DNA of 64,000 nucleotides. It comes from an uncultured Ruminococcus sp. Its GTDB lineage: Bacteria; Bacillota; Clostridia; Oscillospirales; Ruminococcaceae. The notes under the pieces were generated by a model, which was not told where the DNA came from, made no database searches, and was given only the letters and a program-made list of their open reading frames with translations. Made by a program: the position numbers and the translations under genes. Location: positions 32,852-96,851 of the forward strand of contig CANQJO010000003.1 in NCBI GenBank assembly GCA_947624255.1, in the 5' to 3' direction. Positions 9,561 through 59,293 of the stretch are shown piece by piece. The stretch's first letter is position 1; every line of letters begins with the position of its first letter.

Positions 9561-9706
9561 AAAAACCGTGAAAAATTTGCGGACAGACCATGCATTTTAC
9601 AAGGAAAAGGAACGAAGCCGTACCGATGTATGCCGAGTCACTTTGACGCAGTAAAAGGTGCGGGACCTTCGCAAAGGTTCCCGGTTTTTAGAGTGAGATC
9701 GGTATA
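9561..9706 (+). repeat. Dispersed structured repeat, long form (copy A)
   Basis: Shares acgaagccgtacc, agtcactttga, agtaaaaggtgc and ttttaga..tga..gatcggta with 24763-24926. Confidence 0.85.
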
Positions 9707-9745
9707 AAATCACGGGAAGCAGGCTTCCTGTCTGGAGGATTTTAA

Positions 9746-11077
9746 ATGATAGTGCAGCTAATACTGCAAATTATCCTTATAGCTCTTAACGCTGTCTTTG
9801 CCTGTGCAGAGATAGCAGTAATATCCATAAATGATACACACCTTGAAAAGCTCGCTGCGAGCGGCAATAAGCGAGCCGTCCGTCTGAAGCGTCTCACCGA
9901 GAGTCCCACACGCTTTCTTGCTACGATACAGGTAGCGGTGACGCTCTCCGGATTCATCGGCGCTGCTTTTGCAGCCGACAGCTTTGCCGAGATCCCGGTG
10001 AGAGCGATACTGAAAACGGGTATCTCTGTCAGTGAAAGCGTGCTGCGGTCGGTTTCGGTAGTGCTGGTAACTCTTGTGCTGTCATATTTCACACTTGTGT
10101 TCGGAGAACTCGTTCCCAAGCGTGTGGCAATGAAACACTCGGAAAAGCTGGCACTCGGCATGAGCGGCTTTATTGAACTCGTGTCAAAGATATCTGCTCC
10201 GCTTGTATGGCTGCTGAATATCTCGGCGAACGGCGTACTGCGCCTTATGGGAATTGATCCGGAGGCGGAGGAGGATACCGTCACTGAAGAGGAAATACTT
10301 ATGATGTCAGATGCAGGTGCTGAAAAGGGTACTATTGACGAGGACGAAAACCGTATCATAAAGAACGTCTTTGCATTTGACGATATGACTGCCGGTCAGA
10401 TATGCACTCACAGGACAGATGTCTCCGTACTCTGGAGCAATGACGATATCAGCGTATGGGAGGATACTATCCACCGGACACGCCATTCGATCTTTCCCGT
10501 GTGCGGTGAAAGCGTGGATAATATCGTGGGAGTGCTTAATGCTAAGGACTACTTCCGCCTGGATGACAAGAGCCGTGAGAATATAATGCAGAACGCCGTC
10601 ACCGAGCCTTATTATGTTCACGAGACGATGAAGGCTGACAGACTCTTCCAACAGATGAGGCAGAGCGGCGCAGCGCATTTCGCTGTAGTCGTTGATGAAT
10701 ACGGCGGAATGAGCGGCATTATCACCGTGACTGACCTTGCGGAGCAGCTCATAGGCGATTTTGCCGATGATGATGACGGCGATGAGCCGAGGTTTGAACA
10801 GATAGATGACAATAGCTGGATCGTTCCGGGAATGATGTCTCTGAGCCAGCTCAGCGATGAGCTTGATATCACTCTTCCGGCGGATAAGTACGACACTCTC
10901 GGAGGCTACGTGATCGCTTTGCTCGGAGAGATCCCAAAGGACGGCACTCAGGTAAGCCTTGAGACAGACGGACTCCACATTCTTGTCCGGGAAGTAAAGC
11001 ATCACCGGATAGAGGTCTGTACAGTGGAGAAAATAAATACCACCTCTGATAAAGATGACAATGCAGATCCGCAGTAA
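9746..11077 (+). CDS. HlyC/CorC family transporter (CNNM + CBS pair + CorC_HlyC)
   Basis: LNAVFACAEIAVIS, FGELVPKRVA, CBS motifs, VVDEYGGMSGIIT, DTLGGYV. Confidence 0.93.
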   Translation: MIVQLILQIILIALNAVFACAEIAVISINDTHLEKLAASGNKRAVRLKRLTESPTRFLATIQVAVTLSGFIGAAFAADSFAEIPVRAILKTGISVSESVLRSVSVVLVTLVLSYFTLVFGELVPKRVAMKHSEKLALGMSGFIELVSKISAPLVWLLNISANGVLRLMGIDPEAEEDTVTEEEILMMSDAGAEKGTIDEDENRIIKNVFAFDDMTAGQICTHRTDVSVLWSNDDISVWEDTIHRTRHSIFPVCGESVDNIVGVLNAKDYFRLDDKSRENIMQNAVTEPYYVHETMKADRLFQQMRQSGAAHFAVVVDEYGGMSGIITVTDLAEQLIGDFADDDDGDEPRFEQIDDNSWIVPGMMSLSQLSDELDITLPADKYDTLGGYVIALLGEIPKDGTQVSLETDGLHILVREVKHHRIEVCTVEKINTTSDKDDNADPQ

Positions 11078-11167
11078 CCTTAAATATAATTTATGTTCGG
11101 CATCCTTGATGAAGTACAGAATTACACTCCAAGTTGATATATTCGTGCTTGTCTGTCAATCAATGAT

Positions 11168-11208
11168 ATTATAGTGAACGTCAAAAATAATTTGACATTC
11201 ACTATAAT
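11168..11208. repeat. 18-bp-arm palindrome (copy 1)
   Basis: attatagtgaacgtcaaa-aataa-tttgacattcactataat with one mismatch; 19 bp identical to 24649-24667. Confidence 0.85.
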
Positions 11209-11271
11209 TTATTTTTTAAAGTGCCTCGCACATCCGTACGCTTATGCTTGCTCGTGACACTTGACTTACAC

Positions 11272-11300
11272 TTGACTTGTTTCTTAAATAATGGTATAAT
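11272..11300 (+). promoter_or_regulatory. Sigma-A promoter of thyX operon
   Basis: TTGACT-17-TATAAT; the -35 lies in an 11-bp tandem duplication (acacttgactt x2). Confidence 0.7.
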
Positions 11301-11339
11301 TATATTAAGTATCAATTTGTAAAAGGAGGATGCCGGAAA

Positions 11340-12134
11340 ATGAAGGTCACTCTTATCTCTCACACTCCCGATCCCGAAAAGCTCGCAGCTACTGCCGCAA
11401 AGCTCTGCTATTCCTCTGCCGGGATCTCTTCGCTCAGGGAGGGACTCACCTACGACAAAACCGAAAGCTATATAGATATGCTCGTTTCTATCGGACACGA
11501 AAGCGTCATGGAGCACGTGAGCTTCACTTTCGGCATTGAGGGCATATCACGTGCCTGCTCTCATCAGCTCGTCCGCCACAGGATCGCCTCATACTCTCAG
11601 AAAAGTCAGCGATATGTGAATGAAAATGCCTTTGAGTACGTCACTCCGCCCGAAATAGAGGCTATCCCCGCAGCAAAAGCCGAGTATGACCGTATCATGA
11701 GAGAGATCACCGGAAGCTATGAAATGATCGCCGATCTGCTCACGGAAACTCATAAGGAGAAAATGCTCTCTGACGGCATTAACGCTGATACGGCAGCTTC
11801 AAAGGCAAGAAAGCTTGCTAACGAAGACGCTCGCTTTGTTCTTCCGAACGCCTGCGAGACAAAGATAGTCGTTACTATGAATGTCCGCTCGCTCTTTAAT
11901 TTTTTCCGTCACCGCTGCTGTAACCGTGCTCAATGGGAGATACGTGAGGTCGCCTGCGAAATGCTCAGGCTGTGCCTTAAAGAAGCTCCGCATATTTTCA
12001 GACACGCCGGTCCGTCATGCTATGTTACCGGAAAATGCCCGGAGGGAAAAATGTCCTGCGGAAAAATAAAGGAAGTAACGGAACGTTTCGGCAATTTTAT
12101 GAATGATGCCGCAGCAGAACGTTCTGACCAATAA
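11340..12134 (+). CDS. thyX: FAD-dependent thymidylate synthase
   Basis: GHESVMEH, GISRACSHQLVRHRIASYSQKSQRY, EDARFVLPN, AQWEIR. Confidence 0.97.
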   Translation: MKVTLISHTPDPEKLAATAAKLCYSSAGISSLREGLTYDKTESYIDMLVSIGHESVMEHVSFTFGIEGISRACSHQLVRHRIASYSQKSQRYVNENAFEYVTPPEIEAIPAAKAEYDRIMREITGSYEMIADLLTETHKEKMLSDGINADTAASKARKLANEDARFVLPNACETKIVVTMNVRSLFNFFRHRCCNRAQWEIREVACEMLRLCLKEAPHIFRHAGPSCYVTGKCPEGKMSCGKIKEVTERFGNFMNDAAAERSDQ

Positions 12135-12157
12135 ATTTTTATGAAAGGAATTTCACT

Positions 12158-12700: not shown

Positions 12701-12701
12701 T

Positions 12702-24592: not shown

Positions 24593-24621
24593 TTGACAAA
24601 TTCTCTTTTTTGCGGTACAAT
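24593..24621 (+). promoter_or_regulatory. Sigma-A promoter of tRNA-Leu
   Basis: TTGACA-17-TACAAT. Confidence 0.75.
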
Positions 24622-24686: not shown

Positions 24687-24742
24687 TGTTTATGCTTGCT
24701 GATAATTGCCGCTGTGGTGGAATAGGCAGACACAAGGGACTT

Positions 24743-25145
24743 TGATGTTTGCACGCACAGCTTATACCGATTTCTTTCCGAAAGCCGTGCAGGATCTGCG
24801 AACAGACTGTGCCTGTTACAGGGAAAAGTGACGAAGCCGTACCGGGACGTATGTCAAGTCACTTTGATGAAGTAAAAGGTGCAGTATCTTCGTTACGTCG
24901 GATTTTAGAATGAAATCAGATCGGTACGTGCGTCTGCGGCAGATCCGCAGAGAGTGCCCGCAGAGAAATTTGCGGTGCAGAAGTCAGCTAAAACGGTGAA
25001 TGCGCAAACAGAACGCCGTGCTAACCCCATAAGGGTGAGTGTAGAGACTTTACACTGACTGCCTTAGTCCGAAAGGATATGGTAAAGACAAAGTCCGGAC
25101 TACAACATACGATCCCGTATGGCTATGGTGACATAGAGTAGTATG
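24743..25145 (+). ncRNA. Group I self-splicing intron (403 nt) between U34 and A35
   Basis: 5' exon ends in U, intron ends in G. P3 agtcag 24982-87/ctgact 25055-60; P4 acggtg/cgccgt; P6a accc/gggt; P7 gacttt 25046-51/aaagtc 25090-95 with R (GUAGAGACU) and S (AAGACAAAGUCC) elements; P8 with GAAA tetraloop; P9 hairpins. Confidence 0.92.
24763..24926 (+). repeat. Dispersed structured repeat, long form (copy B), inside the intron
   Basis: Bounded by taccgat...atcggta; core homologous to 9561-9706. Confidence 0.85.
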
Positions 25146-25221
25146 AAAATCCCTCGCCGGCGACGGCGTACCGGTTCAAGTCCGGTCAGCGGCACCATTA
25201 CATTGAAAGGAGTTTTTCACC

Positions 25222-25419
25222 ATGGATATCAAGGACAAACTGAGCGATATAACCGACAAGGTAAAAAATGATAAGGATTTCACAAAAAACCTCAAGGAAG
25301 ATCCGGTCAAAGCTGTTGAAAACGTAACCGGTATAGATCTTCCCGATGACAAGATCGACAAGGTAGTTGATACTGCTAAGGACAAGCTCGGCGATATTGC
25401 TGATAAGTTCAAAAAATAA
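25222..25419 (+). CDS. Small hypothetical protein (65 aa)
   Basis: RBS aaggag, amphipathic charged sequence, followed by a terminator. Confidence 0.75.
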   Translation: MDIKDKLSDITDKVKNDKDFTKNLKEDPVKAVENVTGIDLPDDKIDKVVDTAKDKLGDIADKFKK

Positions 25420-25424
25420 GTTCA

Positions 25425-25448
25425 AGGGGCAGAAAATTCTCTGCCCCT
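25425..25448. terminator. Bidirectional terminator
   Basis: aggggcaga/tctgcccct between convergent genes. Confidence 0.75.
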
Positions 25449-32647: not shown

Positions 32648-32711
32648 TATACCGATCTCACTCTAAAATCCGAAAATCTTTGCGAAGATCCTGCACGGTC
32701 CTTATCAGTAT
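32648..32711 (-). repeat. Dispersed structured repeat, short form (copy C)
   Basis: Reverse complement reads atactga..accgtgcaggatcttcgcaaaga..ggattttagagtgagatcggtata. Confidence 0.85.
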
Positions 32712-32732: not shown

Positions 32733-34802
32733 CTAAACTCGTATCCTGTAGGAGATCTCCGTATAGAGCGTTGAAATAAAGATATAGACCTGCTGTATCA
32801 GCGACATGAAAAGCACCAGCAGGAAAAGCATAACAGCCATTGCCGCAAATGTAAGCAGCACCGAGCCTGCTGTTCTCAGGGGAGAATATTGGTGGACTGA
32901 CTTGACCGCCGAGAACATCAGTATCACCGTCCATGCAATGCCGATGATCTGCACCGCCTGAAGAAATACGTATTCGTCCCGTATCAATATGTGCGAGAGA
33001 AATGTTCCGATAAAAAGCTGCGCCGTATACGGAACAAGCGCATATGCGCTGTAGATGAAGATATTCCGAACCGAGCCCTCTCCGTCGAGGAATGTAGAGA
33101 CAGCTCTTCCGGCGATCACCCATGCTCCGAAGAGCACGAAACTCCTGATGATATACGGCATAATCGAGAACGTCTTGTCATATGAAGCTCCGAACTGAAA
33201 GCCGGAAAGTCTTCCGCTGACGATCTCTCCGGCAAAAAGCAGCACAAGCACCACGGCGGCAACTTTGACCGAGCCTGATTTTTTCCAACGCATATCCTCA
33301 AATCCCTCGATCGGGTGCATGACAGTATACCTGAGCCGACCGTTCTTCTCCCACTTGTTAAGATTCTCTTCCGGGTGCTTTTTACGGCGGTATTTTTTTA
33401 GGAGAAATACTCCCGCCGACAATACAATTATCCCGAGAAACAGCTCTCCGCCGTATCGCTCCGTAAGCAGTGAGCGGTATCCCTCAAACGCCTCGTCGTA
33501 CACCTTCGGAGATGCCGCAAGCCGTGCATACTTCATTGCTTCTCTGTAACGCTCCTGCCGCAGAAGTCCGCAGGCTATGCCGAGATATGCTCTTGTGTAG
33601 TTTCCGTCCCTGCGCAGTACCTCGTACCACGAGCCGAGAGCCTCCACATAGAAACCGTCATTATACATCTCATTTGCCTTGTGGACGATACCTCCGAAAT
33701 CCGTCTCTTTGAAGATCGTCACCGTATTTTTCGCAGAATCAGCCACATATAGCCTTGTGCCGTATGATTCGAGAGCTGACGGAGTCTCAAAGCCTCCCTC
33801 CTGATGAGCCTTTGCTCCCATGATGAAAAGCAGAGCGCAGTTCTCATCATACTGAAAAATACGTCCGGTAGTGTAGTCAAGGCAGTTGATACAGCCGTTT
33901 TCAGAGATGTCGATATCAATGAAAGCCGTCTCTAAAAGCTGATTCTGAGCCGCATCGTACATGGGAGTATGGTCGCCGAAAGTAAGTTCAAGATCTGCAA
34001 AAATATTTTTTCCTGCTCCTCCCAATTTTTTTACGATGTCCACTTTTGAAGACGATGATGAGGTGCAGGTATAAATAAAGTCTCCCCGAATGTCAAATCC
34101 CGAGATACCGGCAGGGATATTCCGGGTACGGCGTGCTTTTTTCTCCTCGGAGGAGAAAAAGCTCTCAAAATTATCTCTTATGACCTCAGCCGTAGGCTCT
34201 GTTCTGTTTGCGCCGTAATATCCGGCGAAACTGCCGTCGGGAGCAAACATAGCCGCTCCGGTGGTAATGCTGCTGAGGACGACATAGATATTGCCTGCCT
34301 TATCGGCAATGACTTTCTGCGGAATGAATGTGGGAGCAGTGTAAAGCTCCGACTGAGGCCTCGTTATCTCGGTGATGACCTTACCGCCGGACACAGCAAG
34401 CACCCGTGAGTTTCCGCTGTCCGCAATATACATTACTCCGTCAGAGACATACACTCCGGTTGGAGCGTTAAGTTCTGTGATACTGCCGTCAGGCTCAGTG
34501 AAGCTGTCGTAAACATTAAAAACATTTTCGAGCAGGCTGTCTGTTTCGATTATCCGATCATTATCACTGTCAGCGATATAGAGCGTTCCGTCACCGGTGA
34601 AAAACAGATCTGCCGGAGCACTGAGCGCTCCTAAGCCCATGTCATATCCTGAGACGACCTTTTCGGGAATATAGCCTGCCTGTGAGGGTACGGCCTCTCC
34701 AAAGCGGTCGTATGTATAAACCTCATAGGGAACATCCGCATGAGCTTTCAGAGGTATCATCAGCAGAAAAATTCCGAGAAATACGGCAAAAAATCTTTTC
34801 AT
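32733..34802 (-). CDS. NHL-repeat/TPR-like/Yip1 fusion membrane protein
   Basis: NHL motifs LYIADSDNDRI, MYIADSGNSRV, LYVADSAKNTV; helical segment; YTVMHPIEGFEDMRW and five TM helices (Yip1-like). Confidence 0.8.
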   Translation of the reverse strand: MKRFFAVFLGIFLLMIPLKAHADVPYEVYTYDRFGEAVPSQAGYIPEKVVSGYDMGLGALSAPADLFFTGDGTLYIADSDNDRIIETDSLLENVFNVYDSFTEPDGSITELNAPTGVYVSDGVMYIADSGNSRVLAVSGGKVITEITRPQSELYTAPTFIPQKVIADKAGNIYVVLSSITTGAAMFAPDGSFAGYYGANRTEPTAEVIRDNFESFFSSEEKKARRTRNIPAGISGFDIRGDFIYTCTSSSSSKVDIVKKLGGAGKNIFADLELTFGDHTPMYDAAQNQLLETAFIDIDISENGCINCLDYTTGRIFQYDENCALLFIMGAKAHQEGGFETPSALESYGTRLYVADSAKNTVTIFKETDFGGIVHKANEMYNDGFYVEALGSWYEVLRRDGNYTRAYLGIACGLLRQERYREAMKYARLAASPKVYDEAFEGYRSLLTERYGGELFLGIIVLSAGVFLLKKYRRKKHPEENLNKWEKNGRLRYTVMHPIEGFEDMRWKKSGSVKVAAVVLVLLFAGEIVSGRLSGFQFGASYDKTFSIMPYIIRSFVLFGAWVIAGRAVSTFLDGEGSVRNIFIYSAYALVPYTAQLFIGTFLSHILIRDEYVFLQAVQIIGIAWTVILMFSAVKSVHQYSPLRTAGSVLLTFAAMAVMLFLLVLFMSLIQQVYIFISTLYTEISYRIRV

Positions 34803-34805: not shown

Positions 34806-35681
34806 CTACTCCTTTATCCCGGAGTGCGCCATGGTCTCAATGACGTATCTCTGTGCGAAAATGAAAACAATGACCGGCGGTATCAGCAGAAATACTGCCG
34901 CCGCCATAGCGATCCCTGCACGTGCCATTCCGGAGGAGGCTGCCTGCATCACTGCTGTGGGCAGTGTCTTGTACTGCTCATCGAATATGAGCGATCCCGA
35001 CTGTATGTTCCACGCCGACCCGAATGCGAATATCATCAGTGTCATAAGAGCCGGCTTCTGATTGGGAATTACTATCTGCCGGCATATGCGGAAAAGTCCT
35101 GCGCCGTCCACCTTTGCCGCATCTATTACGGAGTCAGGCATCCGGAGCATTGACTGCCGCATCAGAAAAAGTCCCATAGGTGACGCTACGGAGGGCAGTA
35201 TCAGTGCCGCAGGATCGTTTATCAGGTGAAGTCTTGACAAGACGATATACTGCATTATGTAGATCACATTGCTCTGATAAAGCAGTGCCGTGACTATCAG
35301 TGCATTTATTGCTTTGCTGCCGGGAAATTGACACTTCGCCAGAACAAAGGCTGCCATTGAAACGCTTACGCATTGCAGGACCGTCACCGATACGGTGATG
35401 AAAACGCTGTTGAATACATACCTCGAAAACGGCACACGGTTCTCACGGAGAGCTGCAAACATATCAGAGAAATTATCCGTTGTCGGGCGCAGCGTGTAGA
35501 GCTTCGGCGGAAAGATGAACAGCTCCTCCACAGGCTTTACAGAGGTCACCACTGTCAGATATATGGGAAATGCCATAAAGATACCCAACACGGTCAGAAA
35601 CAAAAATATCCCCACCGTACCGGCATATTTTCTGCCGGCAGGTCTGTTTGAGGCTTTTAGCCTGTGAGCCATTTTCATCAC
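34806..35681 (-). CDS. Carbohydrate ABC transporter permease
   Basis: LFLMRQSM..MPDSVIDAAKVDGAG. Confidence 0.92.
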   Translation of the reverse strand: MMKMAHRLKASNRPAGRKYAGTVGIFLFLTVLGIFMAFPIYLTVVTSVKPVEELFIFPPKLYTLRPTTDNFSDMFAALRENRVPFSRYVFNSVFITVSVTVLQCVSVSMAAFVLAKCQFPGSKAINALIVTALLYQSNVIYIMQYIVLSRLHLINDPAALILPSVASPMGLFLMRQSMLRMPDSVIDAAKVDGAGLFRICRQIVIPNQKPALMTLMIFAFGSAWNIQSGSLIFDEQYKTLPTAVMQAASSGMARAGIAMAAAVFLLIPPVIVFIFAQRYVIETMAHSGIKE

Positions 35682-35712
35682 CGCCTTTTGTCAGAGAGAA
35701 AAATCATACAGA

Positions 35713-36636
35713 TCACAGATCATCTGCGGAGAGAAGCCTGCCTATGATCTTGTTGCATATGAACATCATCAGAAAAATTATCATGCAGATCGCCGAGGCA
35801 TATCCCATTTCATACCGCAGCCAGCCATAGTCGTAGGCGTGCGACATCATCGTATCCGCCTGATAGTCCGTACTTGGAAGTCCGACAAGGTTCTGAGCTA
35901 CCGTTCCTGCCGTGAACGAGCTGACGATCTGCATTACCGCCGCAAACAGGAGCTGCGGCTTCATGGAGGGTATTGTTATATAGACAAGCTCCTGCCACCG
36001 TGAGTTCAATCCCTCGATAGCTGCTGCCTCATATTGTGAACGGTCGATATTCTGAAAGCCTGCTCTCAGGGCAAGAAAGCCTGCTCCGAGCGAGATCCAA
36101 AGCTGCACCGCTATCGTCACCCAAAGGACATACCGACCATCGGTGAGCCACTGTATCGGTGAGGTTATTATCCCGGTATCCATGAGAAACGAGTTCAGAT
36201 AGCCGTTCATATCTCCGCTGAAAATAAGCTGCCAGACGGTGTACACTCCCGCAAATGAGGGTATGTAGAATATCAGCGTAAAGAGAGTTCTGAAAAACGG
36301 GGGAAGCTCGTTTATCAGCCACGCAAGCAGAAAACAGAGGATATAGCTCAGCGGTCCGGTGAAAAATGCGAATATCATAGTGGTGCGTATTGATCTGAGA
36401 AATATCTTATCCGAAAAGAACAGCGCCCGATAGTTGGAAAATCCCACAAATCGGGGTTTATTCACCATGTCGAAGTCTGTAAATCCTATGGGGAGCGACA
36501 TTACTACCGGCACAACGGTAAATATCAGAAAGAGTATCATAAAGGGCGCAAGCATACCGTAGCAGGCGGCATTTTTCTTTATATCCTTCCACAGGACTGA
36601 GCTGCTCCGACCCGAGCTCTTTTTCATGACGATCAC
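35713..36636 (-). CDS. Carbohydrate ABC transporter permease
   Basis: AGFQNIDRSQYEAAAIEGLNSRWQEL, EMGYASAI. Confidence 0.92.
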   Translation of the reverse strand: MIVMKKSSGRSSSVLWKDIKKNAACYGMLAPFMILFLIFTVVPVVMSLPIGFTDFDMVNKPRFVGFSNYRALFFSDKIFLRSIRTTMIFAFFTGPLSYILCFLLAWLINELPPFFRTLFTLIFYIPSFAGVYTVWQLIFSGDMNGYLNSFLMDTGIITSPIQWLTDGRYVLWVTIAVQLWISLGAGFLALRAGFQNIDRSQYEAAAIEGLNSRWQELVYITIPSMKPQLLFAAVMQIVSSFTAGTVAQNLVGLPSTDYQADTMMSHAYDYGWLRYEMGYASAICMIIFLMMFICNKIIGRLLSADDL

Positions 36637-39566
36637 CCTCCCTTTTCAGAAGATGCAGCGGCACGCCGCCCGATCTCCTCGTTTATCTCCTTGTTGTACC
36701 GGATAAGCGTATCTCGCGGGTTTTCATGCTGATTTACCGTCTCACGAAAAGCATTCATTATGTTTCTTGTCACGGCATACGATGCCTGAATTATCGGCAG
36801 CTCTGCAAGCTCCTCCTGCTGCGCACGCAGGCGTGAAAGCTGCTGTGCCGACCAAGAAAGCTGTCCGAGAGCCTCAAGATTCGCCGTGTCGAAACGTCCG
36901 AGAATTCCGGAGATGCCCTCTATCCGTGATGCGTACTGCACCTGTGTATCAGCTCTTGTGAACCATTCGATAAAGCGCCATGCGTCCTCTTTATTTTTTG
37001 CACTGTTGAATATGACTGCTCCCGAGCCGTTGGAATTTGCCGCATGAGAGACTGTGCCGTCAGCCTGTTTTGTGCCGGGAACAGGGCAGAATTCCCACAG
37101 ACCGCTTATCTCCGGAGAGGCTGCTTCAAGCTTGTTTGCAAAAGTATAGTCCTGAATGACGATCGGGTACTCTCCTGTTCTGAAACGGCTGAAAGCATCG
37201 TATGTCTGCTCGAACGAGTATTCGGTGTAGAAGTCCGTCCATTCTTCAAAGGAATCTACCGCATCGGCGCTGTCAAGCACAGAGGCTGAGAGTGTGCTGT
37301 CATAGTAGTTCATTCCCTTCTGGAGCATCAGCATGGCAAATGTATGCCCTGTCTCCGTGGCAGGAGACACACCTGCTGACGGAAGAACAAGCCCGACAGA
37401 CATATAACTCCTTTGTATCGCAGGGAGCATATCCCTCAACTCGTCCCATGTTTCGGGAGGATGGTCAAAACCAAGCTGAGTGAGGATATCCGTCCGATAA
37501 AACATCATTGGGAAACTCTGACTTATGGGGATACCGTAAATTCTGCCGTTGTATGTATACTGAGTGAGTGCGCTTTTCTGAAAACGCTCTGTCACAGCAG
37601 AGAGATCATCAAACCGGGTGAGATCGGTAAGCAACCCCCTTGACGCAAGGTTCACGGGAAACTCTCCTCCCAGAAAAAGCGCCGCATCGGGAGCTTCACC
37701 GGCAAGGGCAGCCTCTACCACTCCGCTTGTTACAAGACTTACGGCAACGGGAATACCGTATTCAGGCATGAACCTGCTTTCGGTCAGCTCTCTGACAGCC
37801 TGTGCCTGATCACGTCCGAGACTTATCCAGACATTCACAGCTTCATCGTCACTCACACCGGAGAGTGCGGTGTAGTCCTCAAAGAAAGAGCCGATAAATG
37901 ACTTGAACCGGAATACAGCCGATCTGCCGAGGCTTTTTTTACAATCGGAAAAGCTCTCATCGGCAGAGGCAAATTCAATATAGTCGATCTCAAGAGGCTG
38001 GTCACGGTACTCTTTTGTCCATGCGTAAACAGCGGTCATGCTCTCCTTTATCTGCGCAAGGTAGGAGGGAATTTTCAAGGGCTTTTCAGTACATTTGTCA
38101 AGTACGACCGTCAGCCGCTCGATTATCGCCGCCTCAGAGCCTGATGAGCCGGAAAGCGATTCGATCTCCCTTTGTGCGCTTTTCAGTTCGCCGGAGATGC
38201 GGCTCAATTCGTCAACAAGTCCGGGAATTTTTTCGTGAACGTAATAATCGGTGTATTTATCGGGAGCAGGTCCCGTTATCATAAGTATCTGCCTGTAGCA
38301 TGAATTCAGATCGTCAACGGCATTGTCTATCCTCATCAGCGAGCTTCCCGTTTCACCGGGAACAGCTTCCATAGTGAGAGTGTGGTCAGATGCGGCATCA
38401 AGGTAGATGTACAGGTCATCGCCGTCTGCTTTCGGTGTGACGATGTTCCAGTCTCTGCCGTAGAAAAATTTCACCCGATCGAGTTCCTGACACGGAACAG
38501 TTCCGTCAATATAGATCCTCCTGACGGAGTACATACCTCTCATTTCGTCCTGACGTGCCTTTATCCCGATTTTGTACAGACCGGAGCACGGAATTTCTTC
38601 ACGGGGGATTTCCCACGTGACAGACTGTCCTGTTTTTTTCCAGCTTTCATCGCCGATCGTGTTGTATCTCAGCTTCACCGGATCGGAGGGAGAAACATTA
38701 CAGCTTGTATTATCATATGTGGGACCAAGAGAAGGATCGGACTTATATGCCGCATTTTCGCCCTCTATGCGGAATACTCCCCCGGTGTTATTTTGTGAGC
38801 TGCCGGGCTGTGCGGAGACATATTCGCTGTAGGAGGGGATCTCTCTGTTAAAGAAGCGGAAACTCTCAAGAGCAAATCCGCCGCCCTGCGAAGAAAGCTC
38901 CACACGGTGAGAGCCTTTTTCAAAATAAAAAACAAGGGGCTGAGCGAAAAGACCGTCCGGGTCGGAGATGACTTGGGTGAGGAGTTTCTCCGTCTGCACC
39001 TGAACGGGGCGGACATCGTTGCCATGAGAGTCCCTGAGTATATCATTTTCGCTTACCCACACCCTGCTGAGCATAAGGCGTGATGCCTGCTCATAGGGCA
39101 GAACACCGTCAATGGTCACGGATAGCTCTATTCCGGTGCGCACCGTACTCATGGGGCAGTATTTCATTTCAAGACAGTATATGCCTGTTTCGGGGATATC
39201 GACGGTATAGGAGACAGCTCCCTGACCGTCATGCCACAGGAGGACATTATCGGCAGTGATTCCCTGAATTATGTAATCTCCGGCAGAAGCTCCGCCCTCT
39301 GCCGAAATGAAGTCTCCTCCGCTGAGGCATACCTCGCACTCCGGGCGGCTTTTGTCGGAATGGAGTGCGAGATACTCTCCATAGGAGAGTATCTTCGTAT
39401 CGAGAGGCTCAATAGAATAATAATCCTGCGCCATTGCGGAGTATGTCTCCGGTGAGGCGTAATATTCCTGTTCAGCGGCAAGAGCTGCGGCAGGGATAAT
39501 GAAACCTGCAAAGGTAAGACAGCTCAGCAAAGCAGCAACAGCTTTTGCGGTAATATTTTTTCTCAC
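36633..39566 (-). CDS. Very large extracellular solute-binding protein (977 aa) with N-terminal beta-rich modules
   Basis: Signal peptide; C-terminal SBP motifs YGIPISQSFPMMFYRTDIL, PPETWDEL, AWRFIEWF. Confidence 0.85.
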   Translation of the reverse strand: MRKNITAKAVAALLSCLTFAGFIIPAAALAAEQEYYASPETYSAMAQDYYSIEPLDTKILSYGEYLALHSDKSRPECEVCLSGGDFISAEGGASAGDYIIQGITADNVLLWHDGQGAVSYTVDIPETGIYCLEMKYCPMSTVRTGIELSVTIDGVLPYEQASRLMLSRVWVSENDILRDSHGNDVRPVQVQTEKLLTQVISDPDGLFAQPLVFYFEKGSHRVELSSQGGGFALESFRFFNREIPSYSEYVSAQPGSSQNNTGGVFRIEGENAAYKSDPSLGPTYDNTSCNVSPSDPVKLRYNTIGDESWKKTGQSVTWEIPREEIPCSGLYKIGIKARQDEMRGMYSVRRIYIDGTVPCQELDRVKFFYGRDWNIVTPKADGDDLYIYLDAASDHTLTMEAVPGETGSSLMRIDNAVDDLNSCYRQILMITGPAPDKYTDYYVHEKIPGLVDELSRISGELKSAQREIESLSGSSGSEAAIIERLTVVLDKCTEKPLKIPSYLAQIKESMTAVYAWTKEYRDQPLEIDYIEFASADESFSDCKKSLGRSAVFRFKSFIGSFFEDYTALSGVSDDEAVNVWISLGRDQAQAVRELTESRFMPEYGIPVAVSLVTSGVVEAALAGEAPDAALFLGGEFPVNLASRGLLTDLTRFDDLSAVTERFQKSALTQYTYNGRIYGIPISQSFPMMFYRTDILTQLGFDHPPETWDELRDMLPAIQRSYMSVGLVLPSAGVSPATETGHTFAMLMLQKGMNYYDSTLSASVLDSADAVDSFEEWTDFYTEYSFEQTYDAFSRFRTGEYPIVIQDYTFANKLEAASPEISGLWEFCPVPGTKQADGTVSHAANSNGSGAVIFNSAKNKEDAWRFIEWFTRADTQVQYASRIEGISGILGRFDTANLEALGQLSWSAQQLSRLRAQQEELAELPIIQASYAVTRNIMNAFRETVNQHENPRDTLIRYNKEINEEIGRRAAASSEKGG

Positions 39567-48686: not shown

Positions 48687-49034
48687 ATGTCAGTTAAAAG
48701 AGGAGAGATCTATTACGCCGACCTCAGCCCCGTGGTAGGCTCTGAACAGGGCGGCATCAGACCGGTACTTATAGTTCAGAACGATGTGGGAAACAGACAC
48801 AGTCCCACAGTAATTGCGGCAGCCATTACAAGTCAGCGTGATAAGACGCATCTGCCTACCCACATCGAAGTTCAGGCTGAAAAATGCGGTCTTGCAAAAG
48901 ACAGCATCGTACTGCTTGAACAGATACGCACTATCGACAAAAAACGTCTCAAAGACAAAATGGGCGAGCTTGATCTGCGCTCTATGAATAAGGTGAACAC
49001 TGCACTTTCCATTAGTTTCGGACTGGAGATCTGA
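48687..49034 (+). CDS. mazF: MazF/PemK family endoribonuclease (EndoA-like), no adjacent antitoxin
   Basis: KRGEIYYADLSPVVGSEQGGIRPVLIVQNDVGN..SPTVIAAAIT..LPTH..SIVLLEQIRTIDK. Confidence 0.95.
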   Translation: MSVKRGEIYYADLSPVVGSEQGGIRPVLIVQNDVGNRHSPTVIAAAITSQRDKTHLPTHIEVQAEKCGLAKDSIVLLEQIRTIDKKRLKDKMGELDLRSMNKVNTALSISFGLEI

Positions 49035-49042
49035 TGCCGATC

Positions 49043-51640
49043 TCACTTGAAAAATGCGCATAATATCGGTATCACCGCACTGAATCCCAACGCCGTGAGC
49101 ATTTGCTGTGCAGTAAGACTGACCGTCTCAAATACTACCTGAAGCTGCGGTATCGTCACCGATGCCGCAAGCACTGCAAATGAGATGAGCACTGCGCCAA
49201 CGAGCTTCATATTGTTGAAGATGTTGATATGCAGCAGTGAACGGCTCTCAGATTTGCACTCGAATACATGGATAAGCTGCGACATCACAAGCGTCACAAG
49301 AGCAGCAGTTCTGCCTGCCTCCTGTGAACCTCCCAGTCGCATTACCGTGGTAAAGGAGGCAAGCGTGGATAAGCCGATGAATATCCCACGGAAAATTATT
49401 TTCCACATCAGACCGCCTGAGAAAAATCCCTCTGTGGATCTTCGGGGCGGTCTGTTCATTATGTCGCTCTCCGGCGGTTCAAGTCCCAGAGCAATTGCCG
49501 GAAGCCCATCGGTGACGAGATTCACAAGAAGTATCTGTACCGGCAGCAGCACAATGGGCATTCCCATTATTATACCAAGAAACATGGTCAGTACCTCACC
49601 TATATTGCAGGAGAGAAGATATCTCACAAATTTCCGTATATTGGCATAAACGCAGCGTCCCTGTTCGACGGCATCTACGAGTGTGGCAAGGTCGTCATCA
49701 AGCAGGATAACGTCAGCAGCCTGCTTGGTAACATCTGTTCCGGTCAAACCCATCGCTACCCCTACATCAGCTTCCTTGATCGCAGGCGCATCGTTCACGC
49801 CGTCACCTGTCATGGTGACGATCTCACCACGGCGTTTGAAACTGCGGACTATCCTCAGCTTGTGGACAGGCTCAACACGGGCAAAAACTGTATATTTTCC
49901 GATCTCACGGTCAAGCTCATCATCGCTCATACGGTCAAGCTCTGCGCCTGTGATAGCCTTGCCGTTTTTCAGAAGTCCTGCTTTTCTTGCAACAGCAACG
50001 GCTGTATTTTTGTGGTCGCCTGTTATCATGACCGTCTTTACCGAAGCGGCAGCACATTTTCTTATAGCTGCTTTTGCCTCTTCACGGGGAGGATCTATCA
50101 TTCCCGAAAGACCGAGAAAAATCAGCTCACGGCAGTGCGGCTCGAAGCTCTCGGAATCGCAGTATGCAAGAGCAAGAACCCTGAGTGCCCGATCGGACAT
50201 CTCAATAGCACGGTTTTCTATACGGCGGCGTATCTCGGACGTGATCGGCAGCAGCTTGCCGTCTGCGTCCATATAGCGGGTACATCGGGGAAGAATGACC
50301 TCCTCCGCACCCTTATAGTACATTCTTTTTCCTGTGGGAGATGTACTGTGAACTGCCATGAATCTGTTTTCACTGTCAAAGGGATACTCATCCAATTTTC
50401 GGCAGCTTATCTCTAAAGAGGAACGTGTAATACCGGCTTTTGCCGCTGCCACAAGCAGTGCTGTCTCGGTGGGATCTCCTGTGACCTGCCACTCTGCAAG
50501 GGTGCGGTTTCTGCCTTTTGTTTTTCCCGGAGATATCACTGCCGTAGAGCACAGCACTCCGCACTTGAGAGCCTCAGTGAGAGCGTGATCCTGCTTTGGA
50601 ACAGCTCCCTTTTCGTTGGTGATGCTTCCTCCCATTCTGTATCCCATGCCGCTGAATGAGAAATTCTCCCCAACGGTCGAAAGCTCAGTCACGGTCATTT
50701 TGTTTTCGGTGATAGTTCCCGTTTTGTCAGAGCATATCACCGAAGCGCAGCCGAGTGTCTCAACGCTGTGCAGCTTATTCACAAGAGCGTTCTGTTTCAG
50801 CATCCTGTTCACCGCAAGAGCAAGAGCGATCGTAACTGTTGCCGGAAGTCCCTCGGGTATCGCTGCAATGGCGATCGTGATGCCGGTCATCAGCATGGTG
50901 AAGACATCTTCTCCTCTGAGCACTCCTGCCGTGAACACAGCAACGCACACCGCAAGGCAGATGAGCGCAACGACCTTTCCAAGCTCGGCAAGCCTCTTTT
51001 GAAGAGGTGTCGGCTCACGGTCGATATCGGTGAGCATTTCGGAGATCTTTCCCATCTGCGTATTCTTTCCCACAGCGATTATCCTCGCACAGCACGTACC
51101 CTTGACCGCCGATGTGCCGCAATAGACGATATTCTCCTTGTTGAGAGAGTTATCTGTATCATTGACATTCCCTTGCAGCTTTGCAACAGCTTCCGATTCG
51201 CCGGTGAGTATCGCTTCATCAGCAAAAAATCCGGAGGAGCGCAGGATAACGCCGTCAGCAGGGATACGGTCGCCTACTTCAAGCTCGATAACATCATCGC
51301 ACACCAGACGTGCGGCAGGTATCTCCTGTAATCTGCCGTCTCTGTAGCATTTAGCTGTGGGAGAGGTCATTGATCTGAGGGCTTCGAGTGTGTGTTCGGT
51401 GCGGAACTCCTGTATAAATCCGAGTATGGCGTTCACCAGCACTATGAGGATTATTGTGACTGCATCTGAGATCTCTCCGAGCAGTATCGAGACAACGGTA
51501 GCGCAAAGGAGTATCATCACCATAACGTCCTTGAATTGTCCTATGAAGATACCTGCGGCACTTGTACGCTTGCTTTCACCAAAAACATTTTCGCCGTCAG
51601 CTTTAAGCCTTTCGGCTGCTTCCTTTTCAGTCAGACCCAT
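49043..51640 (-). CDS. Ca2+-type P-type ATPase (YloB-like)
   Basis: TGES, IPEGLP, ICSDKTGTIT, KGA, DPPR, MITGD, TGDGVNDAPA. Confidence 0.95.
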   Translation of the reverse strand: MGLTEKEAAERLKADGENVFGESKRTSAAGIFIGQFKDVMVMILLCATVVSILLGEISDAVTIILIVLVNAILGFIQEFRTEHTLEALRSMTSPTAKCYRDGRLQEIPAARLVCDDVIELEVGDRIPADGVILRSSGFFADEAILTGESEAVAKLQGNVNDTDNSLNKENIVYCGTSAVKGTCCARIIAVGKNTQMGKISEMLTDIDREPTPLQKRLAELGKVVALICLAVCVAVFTAGVLRGEDVFTMLMTGITIAIAAIPEGLPATVTIALALAVNRMLKQNALVNKLHSVETLGCASVICSDKTGTITENKMTVTELSTVGENFSFSGMGYRMGGSITNEKGAVPKQDHALTEALKCGVLCSTAVISPGKTKGRNRTLAEWQVTGDPTETALLVAAAKAGITRSSLEISCRKLDEYPFDSENRFMAVHSTSPTGKRMYYKGAEEVILPRCTRYMDADGKLLPITSEIRRRIENRAIEMSDRALRVLALAYCDSESFEPHCRELIFLGLSGMIDPPREEAKAAIRKCAAASVKTVMITGDHKNTAVAVARKAGLLKNGKAITGAELDRMSDDELDREIGKYTVFARVEPVHKLRIVRSFKRRGEIVTMTGDGVNDAPAIKEADVGVAMGLTGTDVTKQAADVILLDDDLATLVDAVEQGRCVYANIRKFVRYLLSCNIGEVLTMFLGIIMGMPIVLLPVQILLVNLVTDGLPAIALGLEPPESDIMNRPPRRSTEGFFSGGLMWKIIFRGIFIGLSTLASFTTVMRLGGSQEAGRTAALVTLVMSQLIHVFECKSESRSLLHINIFNNMKLVGAVLISFAVLAASVTIPQLQVVFETVSLTAQQMLTALGFSAVIPILCAFFK

Positions 51641-51671
51641 AAAATTCACCCTTTCGGAGGTTGTACAATAA

Positions 51672-51700
51672 ATTTTATGAGCCGTATCCGAAATGTAGAA
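51672..51700 (-). promoter_or_regulatory. Possible sigma-E promoter of the P-type ATPase
   Basis: Minus strand TTCTACA-14-CATAAAAT; B. subtilis yloB is sigE-controlled (from memory). Confidence 0.4.
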
Positions 51701-51705
51701 CGAAA

Positions 51706-51732
51706 TATCCGGACGCTGAATGCGTCCGGATA
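51706..51732. terminator. Perfect 11-bp hairpin ending the glycan cluster
   Basis: tatccggacgc-tgaat-gcgtccggata. Confidence 0.7.
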
Positions 51733-51776
51733 GGAAAATCATATATACCCGGCATTTGCTGCGCAGATCTGCAAGA

Positions 51777-55374: not shown

Positions 55375-56421
<1,047 letters not shown>

Positions 56422-57486
56422 TTATATCAGTTCTGTTCTGCCCTGTTCACGAAGCTGTGCAATGACCTTTTTGACGTCCTGAGTGCTGTTCTTCGAGCAG
56501 ACAAGCACAGCATCGTCAGTATCTATGATGATGATATCCTCCACGCCAACGGCTGCAATAAGCCTTTTTCCGGCGCATATAGTGGAGCGTTCCGCTCCCA
56601 CGGAGATGACATCTCCCTCAATGTAATTACGGCTGTCGTCAGTTTCGTTGATGCGTTCCACGGCAAGCCAGCTGCCCACGTCGTCCCAGCCGAAACTGCC
56701 GGGAATGGTGTAGATATTTTCAGCCTTTTCCATGATGCCGAAGTCAACCGATTCGCTGCGGAATGCGCTGAACTCCTTTTCAAGGACGGCTGTGAACTCC
56801 GGTTTGCCGAAAGCATCGCCTATCCTGACAGCTCCCTCCCAAATATCGGGCATGAAGCGTTTGATATTCGCCATAATTGAGGAGACTCTCCACACGAACA
56901 TACCGCTGTTCCAGAGATATTTTCCCGAGGCGATATATTTTTTAGCAGTGGGAAGATCGGGTTTTTCAACAAAGCGTTCCACCTCGTAGGCATTGCCGCA
57001 CTCCCTGCCGAAATTGATGTAGCCGTAGCCTGTTTCGGGATATGTGGGAGTTATGCCGATGGTGACGAGATTCTCTCCGCTTTCGGCAACGGTGACAGCT
57101 TTTTTCAGCGTATTGATATAGATATCCTCATAGCCGATAAGGTGATCCGACGGCAGCACAAGCATTACCGCATCATCGTATTTTCTGCTTATGACGGCTG
57201 CCGCAAAGGCGATACAGGGTGCCGTATTGCGGGCACACGGCTCGGCGAGGATATTCTCACAGGGAATATCGGGGAGCCGGTCACGGACAAGCTCTGTATA
57301 AGCGGCATTTGTTACGATGAAAACGTCCTCTGCCGCCACAAGAGGGGCAAGGCGTTTCACGGTTTTTTGTATCATTGTCTCTCCGTCTGAGGTGAGAGAG
57401 AGAAACTGCTTAGGACATGAACTGCGGCTTTTCGGCCAGAAGCGTTCGCCCTTGCCGCCTGCCATGATGACTGCTGTGATCTTCAT
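56422..57486 (-). CDS. manC: Mannose-1-phosphate guanylyltransferase
   Basis: IMAGGKGERFWPKSR..PKQF, EPCARNTAP, PSDH, FVEKP, WNSGMF, WDDVGSW. Confidence 0.95.
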   Translation of the reverse strand: MKITAVIMAGGKGERFWPKSRSSCPKQFLSLTSDGETMIQKTVKRLAPLVAAEDVFIVTNAAYTELVRDRLPDIPCENILAEPCARNTAPCIAFAAAVISRKYDDAVMLVLPSDHLIGYEDIYINTLKKAVTVAESGENLVTIGITPTYPETGYGYINFGRECGNAYEVERFVEKPDLPTAKKYIASGKYLWNSGMFVWRVSSIMANIKRFMPDIWEGAVRIGDAFGKPEFTAVLEKEFSAFRSESVDFGIMEKAENIYTIPGSFGWDDVGSWLAVERINETDDSRNYIEGDVISVGAERSTICAGKRLIAAVGVEDIIIIDTDDAVLVCSKNSTQDVKKVIAQLREQGRTELI

Positions 57487-58862
57487 TTGTTATTCTCCTT
57501 TTCGTCATATGCCGTAAGGATCCCTTCTTCCGTTTCGGCATTTGTTTTTCCGGGAAAAAGCATCGTTTTGAGCGTCATGAGGATAATTTGCAGATCCATT
57601 CTGACGGAGTAATTTTCTATATACATGAGATCCATTTTCAGCTTATCATACGGAGAGGTATCGTACACTCCCGTGACCTGTGCGTATCCGGTCAGACCGG
57701 CTTTGACTTTCAGCCGAAATCTGAATTCGGGCATATCCTTTTCGTACTGATACGTAAGCTCCGGACGTTCGGGGCGTGGTCCGACTACCGACATATCTCC
57801 CCGAAGAATATTTATAAGCTGCGGAAATTCGTCAAGGCGGAATTTTCTCAGCACTTTTCCCACGGGAGTTATCCTGCTGTCCTCTTCCGAGGCAAGCTGA
57901 GGAATGCCGTCCTTTTCAGCGTCAACGATCATGCTCCTGAATTTATAGACGTAGAATTCCTTTGCATCAATGGTGAGCCTTTTTTGCTTGTAGAAGACCG
58001 GTCCGCCGTCACAGAGTTTTATCGCAACGGCAGCCGCCGCCATGAACGGCAGAGAGAGCAGCAGTGCTATCAGAGAAAAAATTATATCAAAGGCACGCTT
58101 TACAAGCCGCTGTTCAAAACTGAGTCCGTAATTACGGCAGAGCAGCAGCGGTGTATCAAAAAGGCGTATATCATCAGCACCTCTGATTATAATATCCGAT
58201 ATTTTCGGTGCAATATACGCCCGCAGAGATCTGTCAAAGCAGAATTTCAGATAGTCGTTGCGCTGCTCCGGAGGGATGTCACAGATTATCACGCCCTCAT
58301 ATTTAAGTATCTGCTCTCTTATTTTATCCGGTGATTCATCAATGCTGACGGATTCGCAGATCATATACTTGTCCACACGCCGGCTCATTTTCAGAACAAG
58401 TGCGGCAGCCTGACGGCTTCCGTAGAGAATAATGAGCTTTCGGGGAGGGTAGATCATAAAATAGACTTTTCCGGTGATGAACGTCCATATTAAAATGAAT
58501 GCAACGTCGGCAAACGTCATGATGATTATGGGATAGGCGTTCATGAAATCTCTGCCGATGAGACTCACCAGAAAGTAGGCGACAACGTTCACGCATACCA
58601 TCGAGATCATCTGAGAGTACAGAATATCGGTTTTTTTCAGATATCCGAGTCTGAATCCGCCGAATGCCTTGAAGAAAAGCATGACTATGAGAGCATAGAT
58701 ACCGATGAGTACCCAGTTTCCTCGGCGGTAGAAAGGCAGGACGATCACTTCGCTGTAGAATTTATACCAGACAAATGCGAATATGCCTGCAAGCACTCCC
58801 AGCAGAACTACAGACATGGCGAATGTCACGGATCTTTTGTATAGGTCTTTTTTGTTGTTCAT
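57483..58862 (-). CDS. Polyprenyl-phosphate glycosylphosphotransferase (priming sugar transferase)
   Basis: Four N-terminal TM helices; KRAFD, GGPVFYKQ, YKFRSM, DEFPQLINIL.GDMSVVGPRPE, AGLTGYAQV. Confidence 0.93.
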   Translation of the reverse strand: MNNKKDLYKRSVTFAMSVVLLGVLAGIFAFVWYKFYSEVIVLPFYRRGNWVLIGIYALIVMLFFKAFGGFRLGYLKKTDILYSQMISMVCVNVVAYFLVSLIGRDFMNAYPIIIMTFADVAFILIWTFITGKVYFMIYPPRKLIILYGSRQAAALVLKMSRRVDKYMICESVSIDESPDKIREQILKYEGVIICDIPPEQRNDYLKFCFDRSLRAYIAPKISDIIIRGADDIRLFDTPLLLCRNYGLSFEQRLVKRAFDIIFSLIALLLSLPFMAAAAVAIKLCDGGPVFYKQKRLTIDAKEFYVYKFRSMIVDAEKDGIPQLASEEDSRITPVGKVLRKFRLDEFPQLINILRGDMSVVGPRPERPELTYQYEKDMPEFRFRLKVKAGLTGYAQVTGVYDTSPYDKLKMDLMYIENYSVRMDLQIILMTLKTMLFPGKTNAETEEGILTAYDEKENNK

Positions 58863-58975
58863 ATAATTTCCTGAGATATCCTCGGATATACACAGGCTCC
58901 TGTTTTTTCTTTGTTCGGTGTTGCCGCAAATCAGACCTGCTCTCTGAAACAAGAATGTTTCCGGCGCATAGGAAT

Positions 58976-59004
58976 ATTATAGCAGATTAAGCAGGTCATG
59001 TCAA
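58976..59004 (-). promoter_or_regulatory. Sigma-A promoter of glycan cluster
   Basis: TTGACA-17-TATAAT on the minus strand. Confidence 0.75.
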
Positions 59005-59055
59005 GAAGAATGACTAAATTAAATTCTCAGAGGGATCTGAAATGATTTTTGAGTA

Positions 59056-59084
59056 TTGACATTGAACCGTTAAGGTGCTATAAT
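59056..59084 (+). promoter_or_regulatory. Sigma-A promoter of hydrolase-murF-ddl operon
   Basis: TTGACA-17-TATAAT; implies a leader of about 235 nt. Confidence 0.75.
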
Positions 59085-59221
59085 TAAATTATATATGGCA
59101 TTCTCTGAAACCTGTCCGCTCAGGCAAAAATCAGACGGGTGCGGTATATGTGCATAGGTCAGGCTTACTCATGTGTAGAATATATATAACTCAGTTAAGC
59201 TATCGCTCCGAAGTTGAGTTT

Positions 59222-59293
59222 TATACCGGTCTCATTCCGAAAACCGTGCAAGATCTTCGCAAAGACCCTCGTGTTTTAGAGCGAGATCGGTAT
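59222..59293 (+). repeat. Dispersed structured repeat, short form (copy D)
   Basis: tataccggtctcattccgaaaaccgtgcaagatcttcgcaaaga..gttttagagcgagatcggtat; 11-bp terminal inverted repeat. Confidence 0.85.

Follow-up and report, generated by a model that had tools for sequence, protein, structure and literature searches.

This report concerns a family of short repeated sequences in a 64,000-nucleotide (nt) stretch of DNA from an uncultured Ruminococcus sp. (contig CANQJO010000003.1 of assembly GCA_947624255.1, positions 32,852 to 96,851; hereafter, the window), which came from a rabbit-gut metagenome. An initial annotation of the window had described four copies of long and short types. These copies, designated c1 to c4, are present within a few bases of the positions then given (for example, 9561-9706 for c1), and we detected in addition a fifth site that is probably an internally deleted relic. 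The limits, as refined on the window sequence, are as follows.

9555-9705, + strand: copy c1, long form
24764-24927, + strand: copy c2, long form
32649-32711, - strand: copy c3, short form
59223-59293, + strand: copy c4, complete short form
49034-49072, - strand: probable internally deleted relic, recognized by a 19-mer match and both arms

Copies in the window and their surroundings

Copy c1 lies between an open reading frame (ORF) with a cohesin domain and the gene for a CNNM/CBS/CorC_HlyC transporter, and c2 lies inside a 403-nt intron of a tRNA-Leu(UAA) gene. Copy c3 occupies a 101-nt intercistronic gap within one operon, between an NHL/Yip1 gene and the DUF5696 gene that follows it, and ends 2 nt before the ribosome-binding site (RBS) AAGGGAGG. 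Copy c4 is in the 5' leader of an alpha/beta-hydrolase / Mur-ligase / D-Ala-D-Ala-ligase operon, the start of which follows after approximately 30 nt; a perfect promoter, TTGACA-17-TGnTATAAT (59056-59084), lies approximately 140 nt before the copy. These are the contexts originally described (before an hlyC-type gene, in an intron, in an operon gap and in a 5' leader), and it is likewise the case that three copies, c1, c3 and c4, end shortly before an RBS, which follows c3, c4 and c1 within about 2, 20 and 30 nt, respectively. The genes that adjoin the copies (CNNM transporter, tRNA intron, DUF5696, hydrolase/Mur ligase) are unrelated to each other. All four copies, and the relic as well, are in the sense direction of the local transcription unit.

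The copies share a 3' signature, the 19-mer TTTTAGAGTGAGATCGGTA, which occurs with at most one mismatch in c1, c3 and c4 and for which 100 dinucleotide-preserving shuffles gave an expectation of 0.00; c2 ends in the same signature, into which 5 nt are inserted (TTTTAGAATGAAATCAGATCGGTAC). The short-form versions of the four copies were used to build a covariance model, which scored c1 to c4 with E values from 3e-23 to 5e-8 and found no further copy in the window. A fifth match to the 19-mer, with three mismatches, lies at 49035-49053 (-); by our own estimate, about 0.01 such matches would be expected by chance. The surrounding 39 nt (49034-49072) contain both arms of the unit (ATACCGAT ... TTTTCAAGTGAGATCGGCAT), without the inner hairpin or middle described below, and probably represent a relic of the family that has suffered an internal deletion. 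This segment covers the final ~10 codons and the TGA stop of a P-type ATPase ORF (49043-51742), and the present C-terminus and stop of this protein may have had their origin in an old insertion. Approximately 11 kb of extra flanking DNA from the source genome yielded no new copy and no transposase. No reading frame is conserved among the copies, and a protein search by way of the spurious ORFs that cross the element gave no candidate for other copies.

Modular build of the unit and pairing of its arms

The unit consists of a 5' arm of ~20 nt (consensus ATACTGATCTCATTCTGAAA), which pairs with a 3' arm of ~20 nt (TTTTAGAGTGAGATCGGTAT), and of an inner hairpin, CCGTGCAGGATCTTCGCAAAGATTCTCGG, between the arms. 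In c4 these parts are the 5' arm ATACCGGTCTCATTCCGAAA, the inner hairpin ACCGTGCAAGATCTTCGCAAAGACCCTCGTG and the 3' arm TTTTAGAGCGAGATCGGTAT; the two arms are paired at 18 of 20 positions, 3 G·U pairs included, and the copy is predicted to fold as a single rod with its arms paired (-23.7 kcal/mol, z -2.9). The long form contains an extra hairpin of ~92 nt, which is lodged in the inner hairpin between the two members of a duplicated 14-nt block. The location of this optional module, termed B, is as follows in the two long copies.

9568-9671, + strand: B module of c1, with duplicated blocks GTGAAAAATTTGCG (9568-9581) and GTGCGGGACCTTCG (9658-9671)
24787-24892, + strand: B module of c2, with duplicated blocks GTGCAGGATCTGCG (24787-24800) and GTGCAGTATCTTCG (24879-24892)

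Copy c2 is predicted to form a longer rod, again with paired arms (z -2.3), and its B module alone is predicted to form a three-tier hairpin. Units range in length from 63 to 164 nt, and their arms are AT-rich. The duplicated 14-nt blocks of c1 and c2 bear out the earlier remark that the short copies resemble a deletion between two internal blocks led by GTGC; the alternative is that the long form arose as an insertion with a duplicated block. The covarying stems that had been proposed for the long core did not withstand inspection: the 3' strands of these stems (GTAAAAGGTGC and GTCACTTT) are identical in c1 and c2, so that the changes are one-sided, on the 5' strands only, and the c1 stem AAAGGAAC/GTCACTTT is broken at two places without compensation. 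Most other copies, as read in metagenome contigs, have a G at the position of 9611, which restores the broken pair of c1. A hammerhead-like sequence in the long core (UGAUGAAG ... CGAAG in c2) was set aside; it is not conserved in c1 and had no Rfam hit. We also rejected a promoter within the element, for which the 3' end (GGTATAA/GGTATTA) resembles a -10 box, as neither scans nor inspection by eye found an acceptable -35 sequence 16-18 nt upstream.

Three of the copies are altered in their arms. The 5' arm of c1 is ~10 nt shorter than usual (ATACTGA joined directly to AAAA), apparently through deletion or slippage between two CTGA repeats of the family consensus; the 5' arm of c3 has a deletion of 8-10 nt (ATACTGAT joined to AAGGA), and the 3' arm of c2 carries the 5-nt insert (GAAATCAGATCGGTAC). 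Just before c1, at 9530-9544 (+), is the sequence TCATAAATACTTATC, which contains the TAA stop of the ORF at 8702-9535 and resembles the sequence that precedes the 5' arm of several other copies (..CATAAATACTGATACTGATT, ..TATAAATACTTATACTAATT). Some copies seem to bear a partial duplication of the 5' arm, and TCATAAATACTTATC is possibly a 5' extension of c1 of this kind.

When three G·U pairs are counted, the arms of the consensus are paired over 20 contiguous positions. Among five copies in which both arms could be linked, 92.9% of the arm cells pair when the arms are in register, as compared with 30-45% when they are slid against each other. Pair 5-40 was seen in these copies as C-G, U·G and U-A, and pair 9-36 as U-A and C-G; pairs 2-11 are broken in none of them. 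It is clear that the family is characterized by ends that pair with each other. The data are suggestive of selection for this pairing, and a shuffle control of arm covariation in the five linked copies went in the right direction without reaching significance (98/500). As the wobbles are G·T, the sense strand forms a better helix than the complementary strand does. The compensatory variants of the arms speak for a hairpin, in single-stranded DNA or in RNA, as the thing recognized, and against a fixed end sequence; such variants could also arise by templated correction within quasi-palindromes.

Copy number, insertion and distribution

Cohesin and dockerin proteins encoded in the window point to the Ruminococcus flavefaciens group, and the best protein relatives are all from Ruminococcus (76% identity for the CNNM protein, 58% for the DUF5696 protein). 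The source species has no close sequenced relative. We estimated copy number from Logan contigs of the source metagenome runs, which were aligned on the copies, by comparing sequence depth over the element with that over its flanks.

c1 (long core): element depth ~150, flank depth 5, 35 contigs
c3 (3' half): element depth 116, flank depth 4, 23 contigs
c4: element depth ~73, flank depth 5.5, 13-15 contigs

Overall, the element was read 13-30 times as deeply as its flanks. Nearly all of the matching contigs continue into unlike sequence, at a depth (2-9x) comparable to that of the window. Because repeats interrupt contigs, some copies are counted twice, and from these short, low-coverage and incompletely read contigs we adopt the cautious figure of at least about 20 further copies in the source metagenome; in all, the family has spread to at least about 20-30 sites. 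Long copies make up about a third to a half of the total (8 of 23 in the contigs matching c3). Around c4, similarity among the metagenome contigs starts at 59220-59223 and stops at 59293-59297, which indicates that the unit has sharp ends, ATAC...GTAT.

The arms fall into subfamilies: ATACTGATTTC/GAAATCAGTAT, ATACTAATTTC/GAAATTAGTAT and ATACCGrT.../...ATCGGTAT. The common 5' arm of the short form is TATACTGATYTCATTCTRAAA (7 contigs), and the common arms of the long form are TTATACTGATTTCATTCCG and GAGTGAAATCAGTAT. A second arm type has ATACTAATTT (4 contigs) with AATTAGTAT (5 contigs of the X2 set and 4 of the X4 set), and one X4 contig contains both arms, ATACTGATTTCA on the 5' side and TGAAATTAGTAT on the 3' side.

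At least two copies, c2 and c3, are shown by comparison of filled and empty sites to have reached their present positions by insertion; both comparisons set one lineage against another and do not involve strains of a single species. For c2, the empty counterpart is an X4 contig, from a different sample, which joins position 24761 to position 24943 through AATGTGTGTCTGTGGTTT and represents a homologous intron without the element. The intron stem at this empty site, CACGCACA-GCAA-TGTGTGTC, is a GNRA-capped hairpin, at the place where the window has AGCTTA, c2 and C. Other X4 contigs cover 24979-25157 at ~90% identity, which indicates that related introns exist in sister lineages. For c3, the empty counterparts are two orthologous operons of other Ruminococcus, L044 and L046 (the latter from R. 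flavefaciens, GCA_000621785.1). Their gene order and their Yip1 C-terminus (...YTEISYRxRV*) agree with those of the window, and in them the spacer from this stop to the start of the DUF5696 gene is 19 nt (L044) or 12 nt (L046). The corresponding 101-nt spacer of the window is composed of 20 nt, c3 and 17 nt.

The window operon itself differs in one respect: NHL and Yip1 domains are joined in a single 689-aa ORF (32733-34802, -), and at L044 1802-3981 and L046 1872-3988 they are two adjacent or overlapping genes (514/496 aa plus 209 aa). Either the genes have fused in the lineage of the window, or they were called differently. The window contains, at 34806-39566, a further DUF5696 / ABC-permease operon, which is paralogous to the first.

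CNNM orthologues at two further loci from other Ruminococcus, L035 and L037, have a different leader, which lacks the element. Before these CNNM/CorC genes is a conserved upstream ORF of 36 codons with its own Shine-Dalgarno (SD) sequence (L035 9826-9936, L037 9837-9947; MK..MDGAPDGSNP.NY....RHGLHYRLC*). Its changes between the two loci are synonymous, Rfam gave no match to it and the window lacks it; as a candidate leader peptide, it might control a transporter of the Mg/Co type.

The search for an HUH transposase proposed in the initial annotation was negative for the window: tblastn with a Y1_Tnp protein found no HUH/Y1 transposase encoded there. The locus L037 of R. flavefaciens (GCA_000571935.1) has, between remA and gyrB, a solitary gene (1766-2173) for a 135-aa protein like Y1_Tnp (IS200/RAYT type; RAYT, the REP-associated tyrosine transposase); the window has no counterpart of this gene, and no member of our repeat family lies near it. 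A supposed strain difference, an extra acetyltransferase gene at locus L040, was rejected, as L040 proved colinear with the window.

The intron that harbors c2 is of interest in itself, and the gene and its surroundings are as follows.

24593-24621: promoter of the tRNA-Leu gene
24708-25197, + strand: tRNA-Leu(UAA) gene, host of c2, with exons 24708-24742 and 25146-25197 and intron 24743-25145
25222-25419, + strand: 65-aa lysine/aspartate-rich ORF with a strong RBS, beginning 25 nt after the tRNA-Leu gene
25425-25448: terminator hairpin after the 65-aa ORF

ARAGORN recognized the spliced sequence as an 87-nt class II tRNA-Leu(UAA); in its default mode the same program reported no tRNA at the intron-bearing locus. 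The intron lies between U34 and A35, measures ~238 nt without c2 and has G as its last base. This site is the classical position of the group I introns of cyanobacterial tRNA-Leu genes. By eye, and by comparison with the group I consensus, we take GTGTAGAGACTTTACA (25039-25054) to be R-like, AAAGACAAAGTCC (25084-25096) to be S-like, AGTCAG (24982-24987) and CTGACT (25055-25060) to be the two sides of a P3 pairing, and a GAAA-capped hairpin to be P8. The Rfam group I models gave no match to the 223-nt intron core, even at E<=10. Copy c2 stands at the tip of an intron stem formed by ACGCAC (24753-24758) and GTGCGT (24928-24933). The 65-aa ORF appears, from its position, to be co-transcribed with the intron-bearing tRNA. 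An intron-bearing tRNA-Leu gene with a natural insertion in it is the most interesting by-product of this work.

Outside the source metagenome we did not find the family. Rfam 15 gave no match at the gathering score in the window and none at E<=10 over any copy, whether the whole window or short stretches were searched. A pattern scan of the GTDB representative genomes returned 32 single hits scattered across all phyla, of which 10 were checked by eye and lacked the rest of the element. In the JGI metagenomes the 3' arm had 0 matches and the long core a single one, by chance, within a coding region; IMG/VR gave one chance hit only; blastn against plasmids and phages found none, and ~110 kb from other Ruminococcus loci contained none.

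Some of the copies outside the window are also in the sense direction and have an RBS and ATG directly after the 3' end (GGAGAAAGGAAACTCATAATG and AAAAAGGAGGA). In two X2 contigs, however, the flanks before 59221 and 59223, when reverse-complemented, read GTTATAAGGAGAGCGATCATAATGAACAAG and TACAGGAGGTAATTATGAAAAACTATCAAA, that is, SD and ATG sequences of genes on the opposite strand, 2-6 nt from the 5' end of the element. The earlier statement that every copy lies sense to transcription holds for the window and fails beyond it, where these two copies are antisense to the gene start that they abut. The tally is about 6 sense to 2 antisense, a bias that is not significant. In both orientations, the copies are strikingly close to ribosome-binding sites.

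Nature of the repeat family

We consider it probable (roughly 0.7) that the family is a lineage-restricted, modular, hairpin-forming interspersed repeat of a non-autonomous type, comparable to BOX elements and to MITEs (miniature inverted-repeat transposable elements), which resides in an uncultured rabbit-gut Ruminococcus of the flavefaciens group. The modular build, inverted arms, sharp ends, dozens of copies and subfamilies are features of a non-autonomous interspersed repeat, as are the decayed and relic copies, the unrelated neighbors, the two empty sites and the range limited to one lineage. The initial annotation had offered a REP/MITE-like non-autonomous element (REP, repetitive extragenic palindromic sequence) as one of its readings and had called for an empty-site comparison; presence in many copies in the source genome, inverted terminal arms and the two empty counterparts, for c2 and c3, support that part of its proposal. 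Its suggestion of a link to the Clostridiales repeat RNAs in Rfam did not hold. Clostridiales-1 and other repeat-like motifs in Rfam resemble our family as multi-copy structured motifs of gut Clostridia, but none of the covariance models gave a match, either at the gathering score or with E<=10.

In build, the family is closest to the BOX element of Streptococcus pneumoniae, boxA-boxB(n)-boxC, in which the end modules pair with each other and an optional middle module folds on itself (Croucher et al. 2011, PMC3049150). Both are small modular interspersed repeats in which the middle module can be present or absent without disturbing the rest: our short form is the arms plus the inner hairpin, and the long form is the short form plus the 92-nt hairpin. 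Both also occur in dozens to ~100 copies, in intergenic or co-transcribed positions near gene starts, with extensive RNA stem-loop structure and an uncertain mobilizing enzyme. The likeness is an analogy, drawn from the description of BOX build only, and the host here is a Ruminococcus, of the Clostridia; given the different phylogenetic class, sequence homology to boxA, boxB or boxC is unlikely. Moreover, the middle module of our family is single and lies between the members of a duplicated 14-nt block, and is not a tandem array, and the family is confined to one uncultured lineage as far as the searched collections show.

Bacterial MITEs include the Correia elements of Neisseria, RUP of the pneumococcus and Nezha of cyanobacteria (reviewed in PMC3184786 and PMC10969869). 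The present family shares with them terminal inverted repeats of ~20 nt (18-20 of 20 positions pair when G·T is counted), a length of 70-165 bp, AT-rich ends, many small, dispersed, non-coding copies (4 plus 1 relic in 64 kb), insertion polymorphism in the form of filled and empty sites, and co-transcription with neighboring genes. It differs from them in having neither a demonstrated target-site duplication nor a partner insertion sequence (IS), in arms that differ consistently at three positions, always as G·T, and in compensatory arm variants, which are unlike the independent decay of transposase-binding ends. REP sequences and bacterial interspersed mosaic elements (BIMEs), with their RAYT enzymes of the Y1/HUH class, are also structure-dependent palindromic units scattered in intergenic DNA, and hairpin-based recognition of the kind they exemplify would explain the compensatory changes. 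REP sequences are ~20-40 nt long and GC-rich, have a conserved GTAG-type head and lie mostly after genes, often in inverted pairs. Our units, in contrast, are 63-164 nt with AT-rich arms, and the window encodes no Y1 transposase, so that we do not place the family with the REP/RAYT systems.

Several observations weigh against a non-autonomous mobile repeat. All of the arm changes in the five linked copies keep pairing, by wobble or by double change, and each of the three mismatches between the consensus arms is a G·U pair on the sense strand; this pattern is better explained by selection acting on RNA of the sense strand than by the neutral decay of a transposon's ends. The short direct repeats at the insertion sites are inconsistent: TAA/TAA at c1 and TTA/TTA at c4, around TAC...GTA, with no duplication at c2 or c3, and with other flanks available only as 30-nt consensus strings. 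Neither the window nor the ~11 kb of extra flank contains a transposase or an IS with matching ends. Finally, the window copies and several others end just before an RBS in the sense direction, which could mean function, and the orientation statistics that bear on this point are weak.

It is possible, although in our view unlikely, that the family is instead a selected cis-acting RNA module, whose sense-strand rod would serve as a site for a protein or RNase, as a 5' stabilizer of mRNA or as a processing signal ahead of the RBS, and whose spread would wire genes into its control. The sense orientation of 4 of 4 window copies is in keeping with this idea, as are the presence of an RBS within 2-30 nt after c1, c3, c4 and at least two other copies (those with GGAGAAAGGAAACTCATAATG and AAAAAGGAGGA), the three G·U pairs needed for 20 contiguous arm pairs, which are valid on the sense strand only, and the variation of pairs 5-40 and 9-36 with pairing kept, no pair among pairs 2-11 being broken in the five linked copies. 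Yet the downstream genes have no shared function, half of the 5' arm is lost in c1 and c3, two copies are antisense to the gene start that they abut, and one copy lies in a tRNA intron, where control of mRNA does not apply. Furthermore, the shuffle control was not significant, and the element is absent at orthologous sites in relatives and from every other genome collection searched. Somewhat more doubtful again is a mobile RNA-structure cassette, in which selection on the sense transcript would keep the 20-bp terminal helix, by wobble and compensatory change, for recognition of the rod by an enzyme of the RNase III type or another factor that binds double-stranded RNA; if this were true, the spread of the cassette to sites before an RBS, and even into a self-splicing tRNA intron, would place many unrelated transcripts under one post-transcriptional control.

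A role as a terminator (SPRITE-like, or an intrinsic one that works in both directions), in which the inner hairpin would stop or attenuate transcription between genes, is improbable for the family and plausible only for c1. This copy comes right after a gene end, and its inner hairpin (9662-9681), followed by TTTTT, was picked by a terminator scan; the layout of A-tract, stem and U-tract is also that of two-way terminators. Among the four copies, however, only c1 has a GC-rich hairpin with 5 or more U among the 8 nt that follow. Copies c3 and c4, which have only 4 U, were not flagged in the scan and lie, respectively, inside an operon and in a 5' leader; efficient termination at c2, in the intron of a tRNA gene, would abolish the tRNA, and the U-run pairs with the 5' arm when the unit folds as a rod. 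The idea that the downstream genes have in common a riboswitch or another leader that senses a ligand is effectively excluded. In its favor, three copies directly precede coding regions, in leaders or spacers, and the sequence shows conservation and a fold; but the element has no Rfam match, is not conserved before orthologues (it is absent before those of the CNNM and DUF5696 genes) and does not precede a coherent set of genes, and its optional middle, arm deletions, dozens of copies and two orientations are foreign to such a leader.

Under the preferred interpretation, a non-autonomous repeat of BOX/MITE type, the unit would fold back on itself into a closed rod, and copies would persist at sites where they are transcribed but harmless. 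Transcribed spacers may tolerate the element because it closes on itself, for which c2 is the best illustration: in the intron, the rod would merely lengthen the tip of a stem, and in a leader or spacer it would stand as a self-contained hairpin just before the RBS. The co-transcribed RNA would probably have side effects on the host message, through stability, RNase processing or weak termination. Effects of this kind have been shown for BOX, ERIC and Correia elements. We infer that the element is not a dedicated regulator.

The family belongs to a well-known kind of bacterial repeat, of which it is a new example, and is not a new class of regulatory RNA; a new class of mechanism would open only if the sense-strand RNA explanation were true. 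Small interspersed repeats are little described in gut Clostridia, and this family is a compact example, with modules, arm subfamilies and two insertions. It offers a natural test case for the tolerance of an extra hairpin by a putative self-splicing intron or by an intercistronic spacer, and in its Ruminococcus lineage it provides a practical marker for strains and causes breaks in assemblies.

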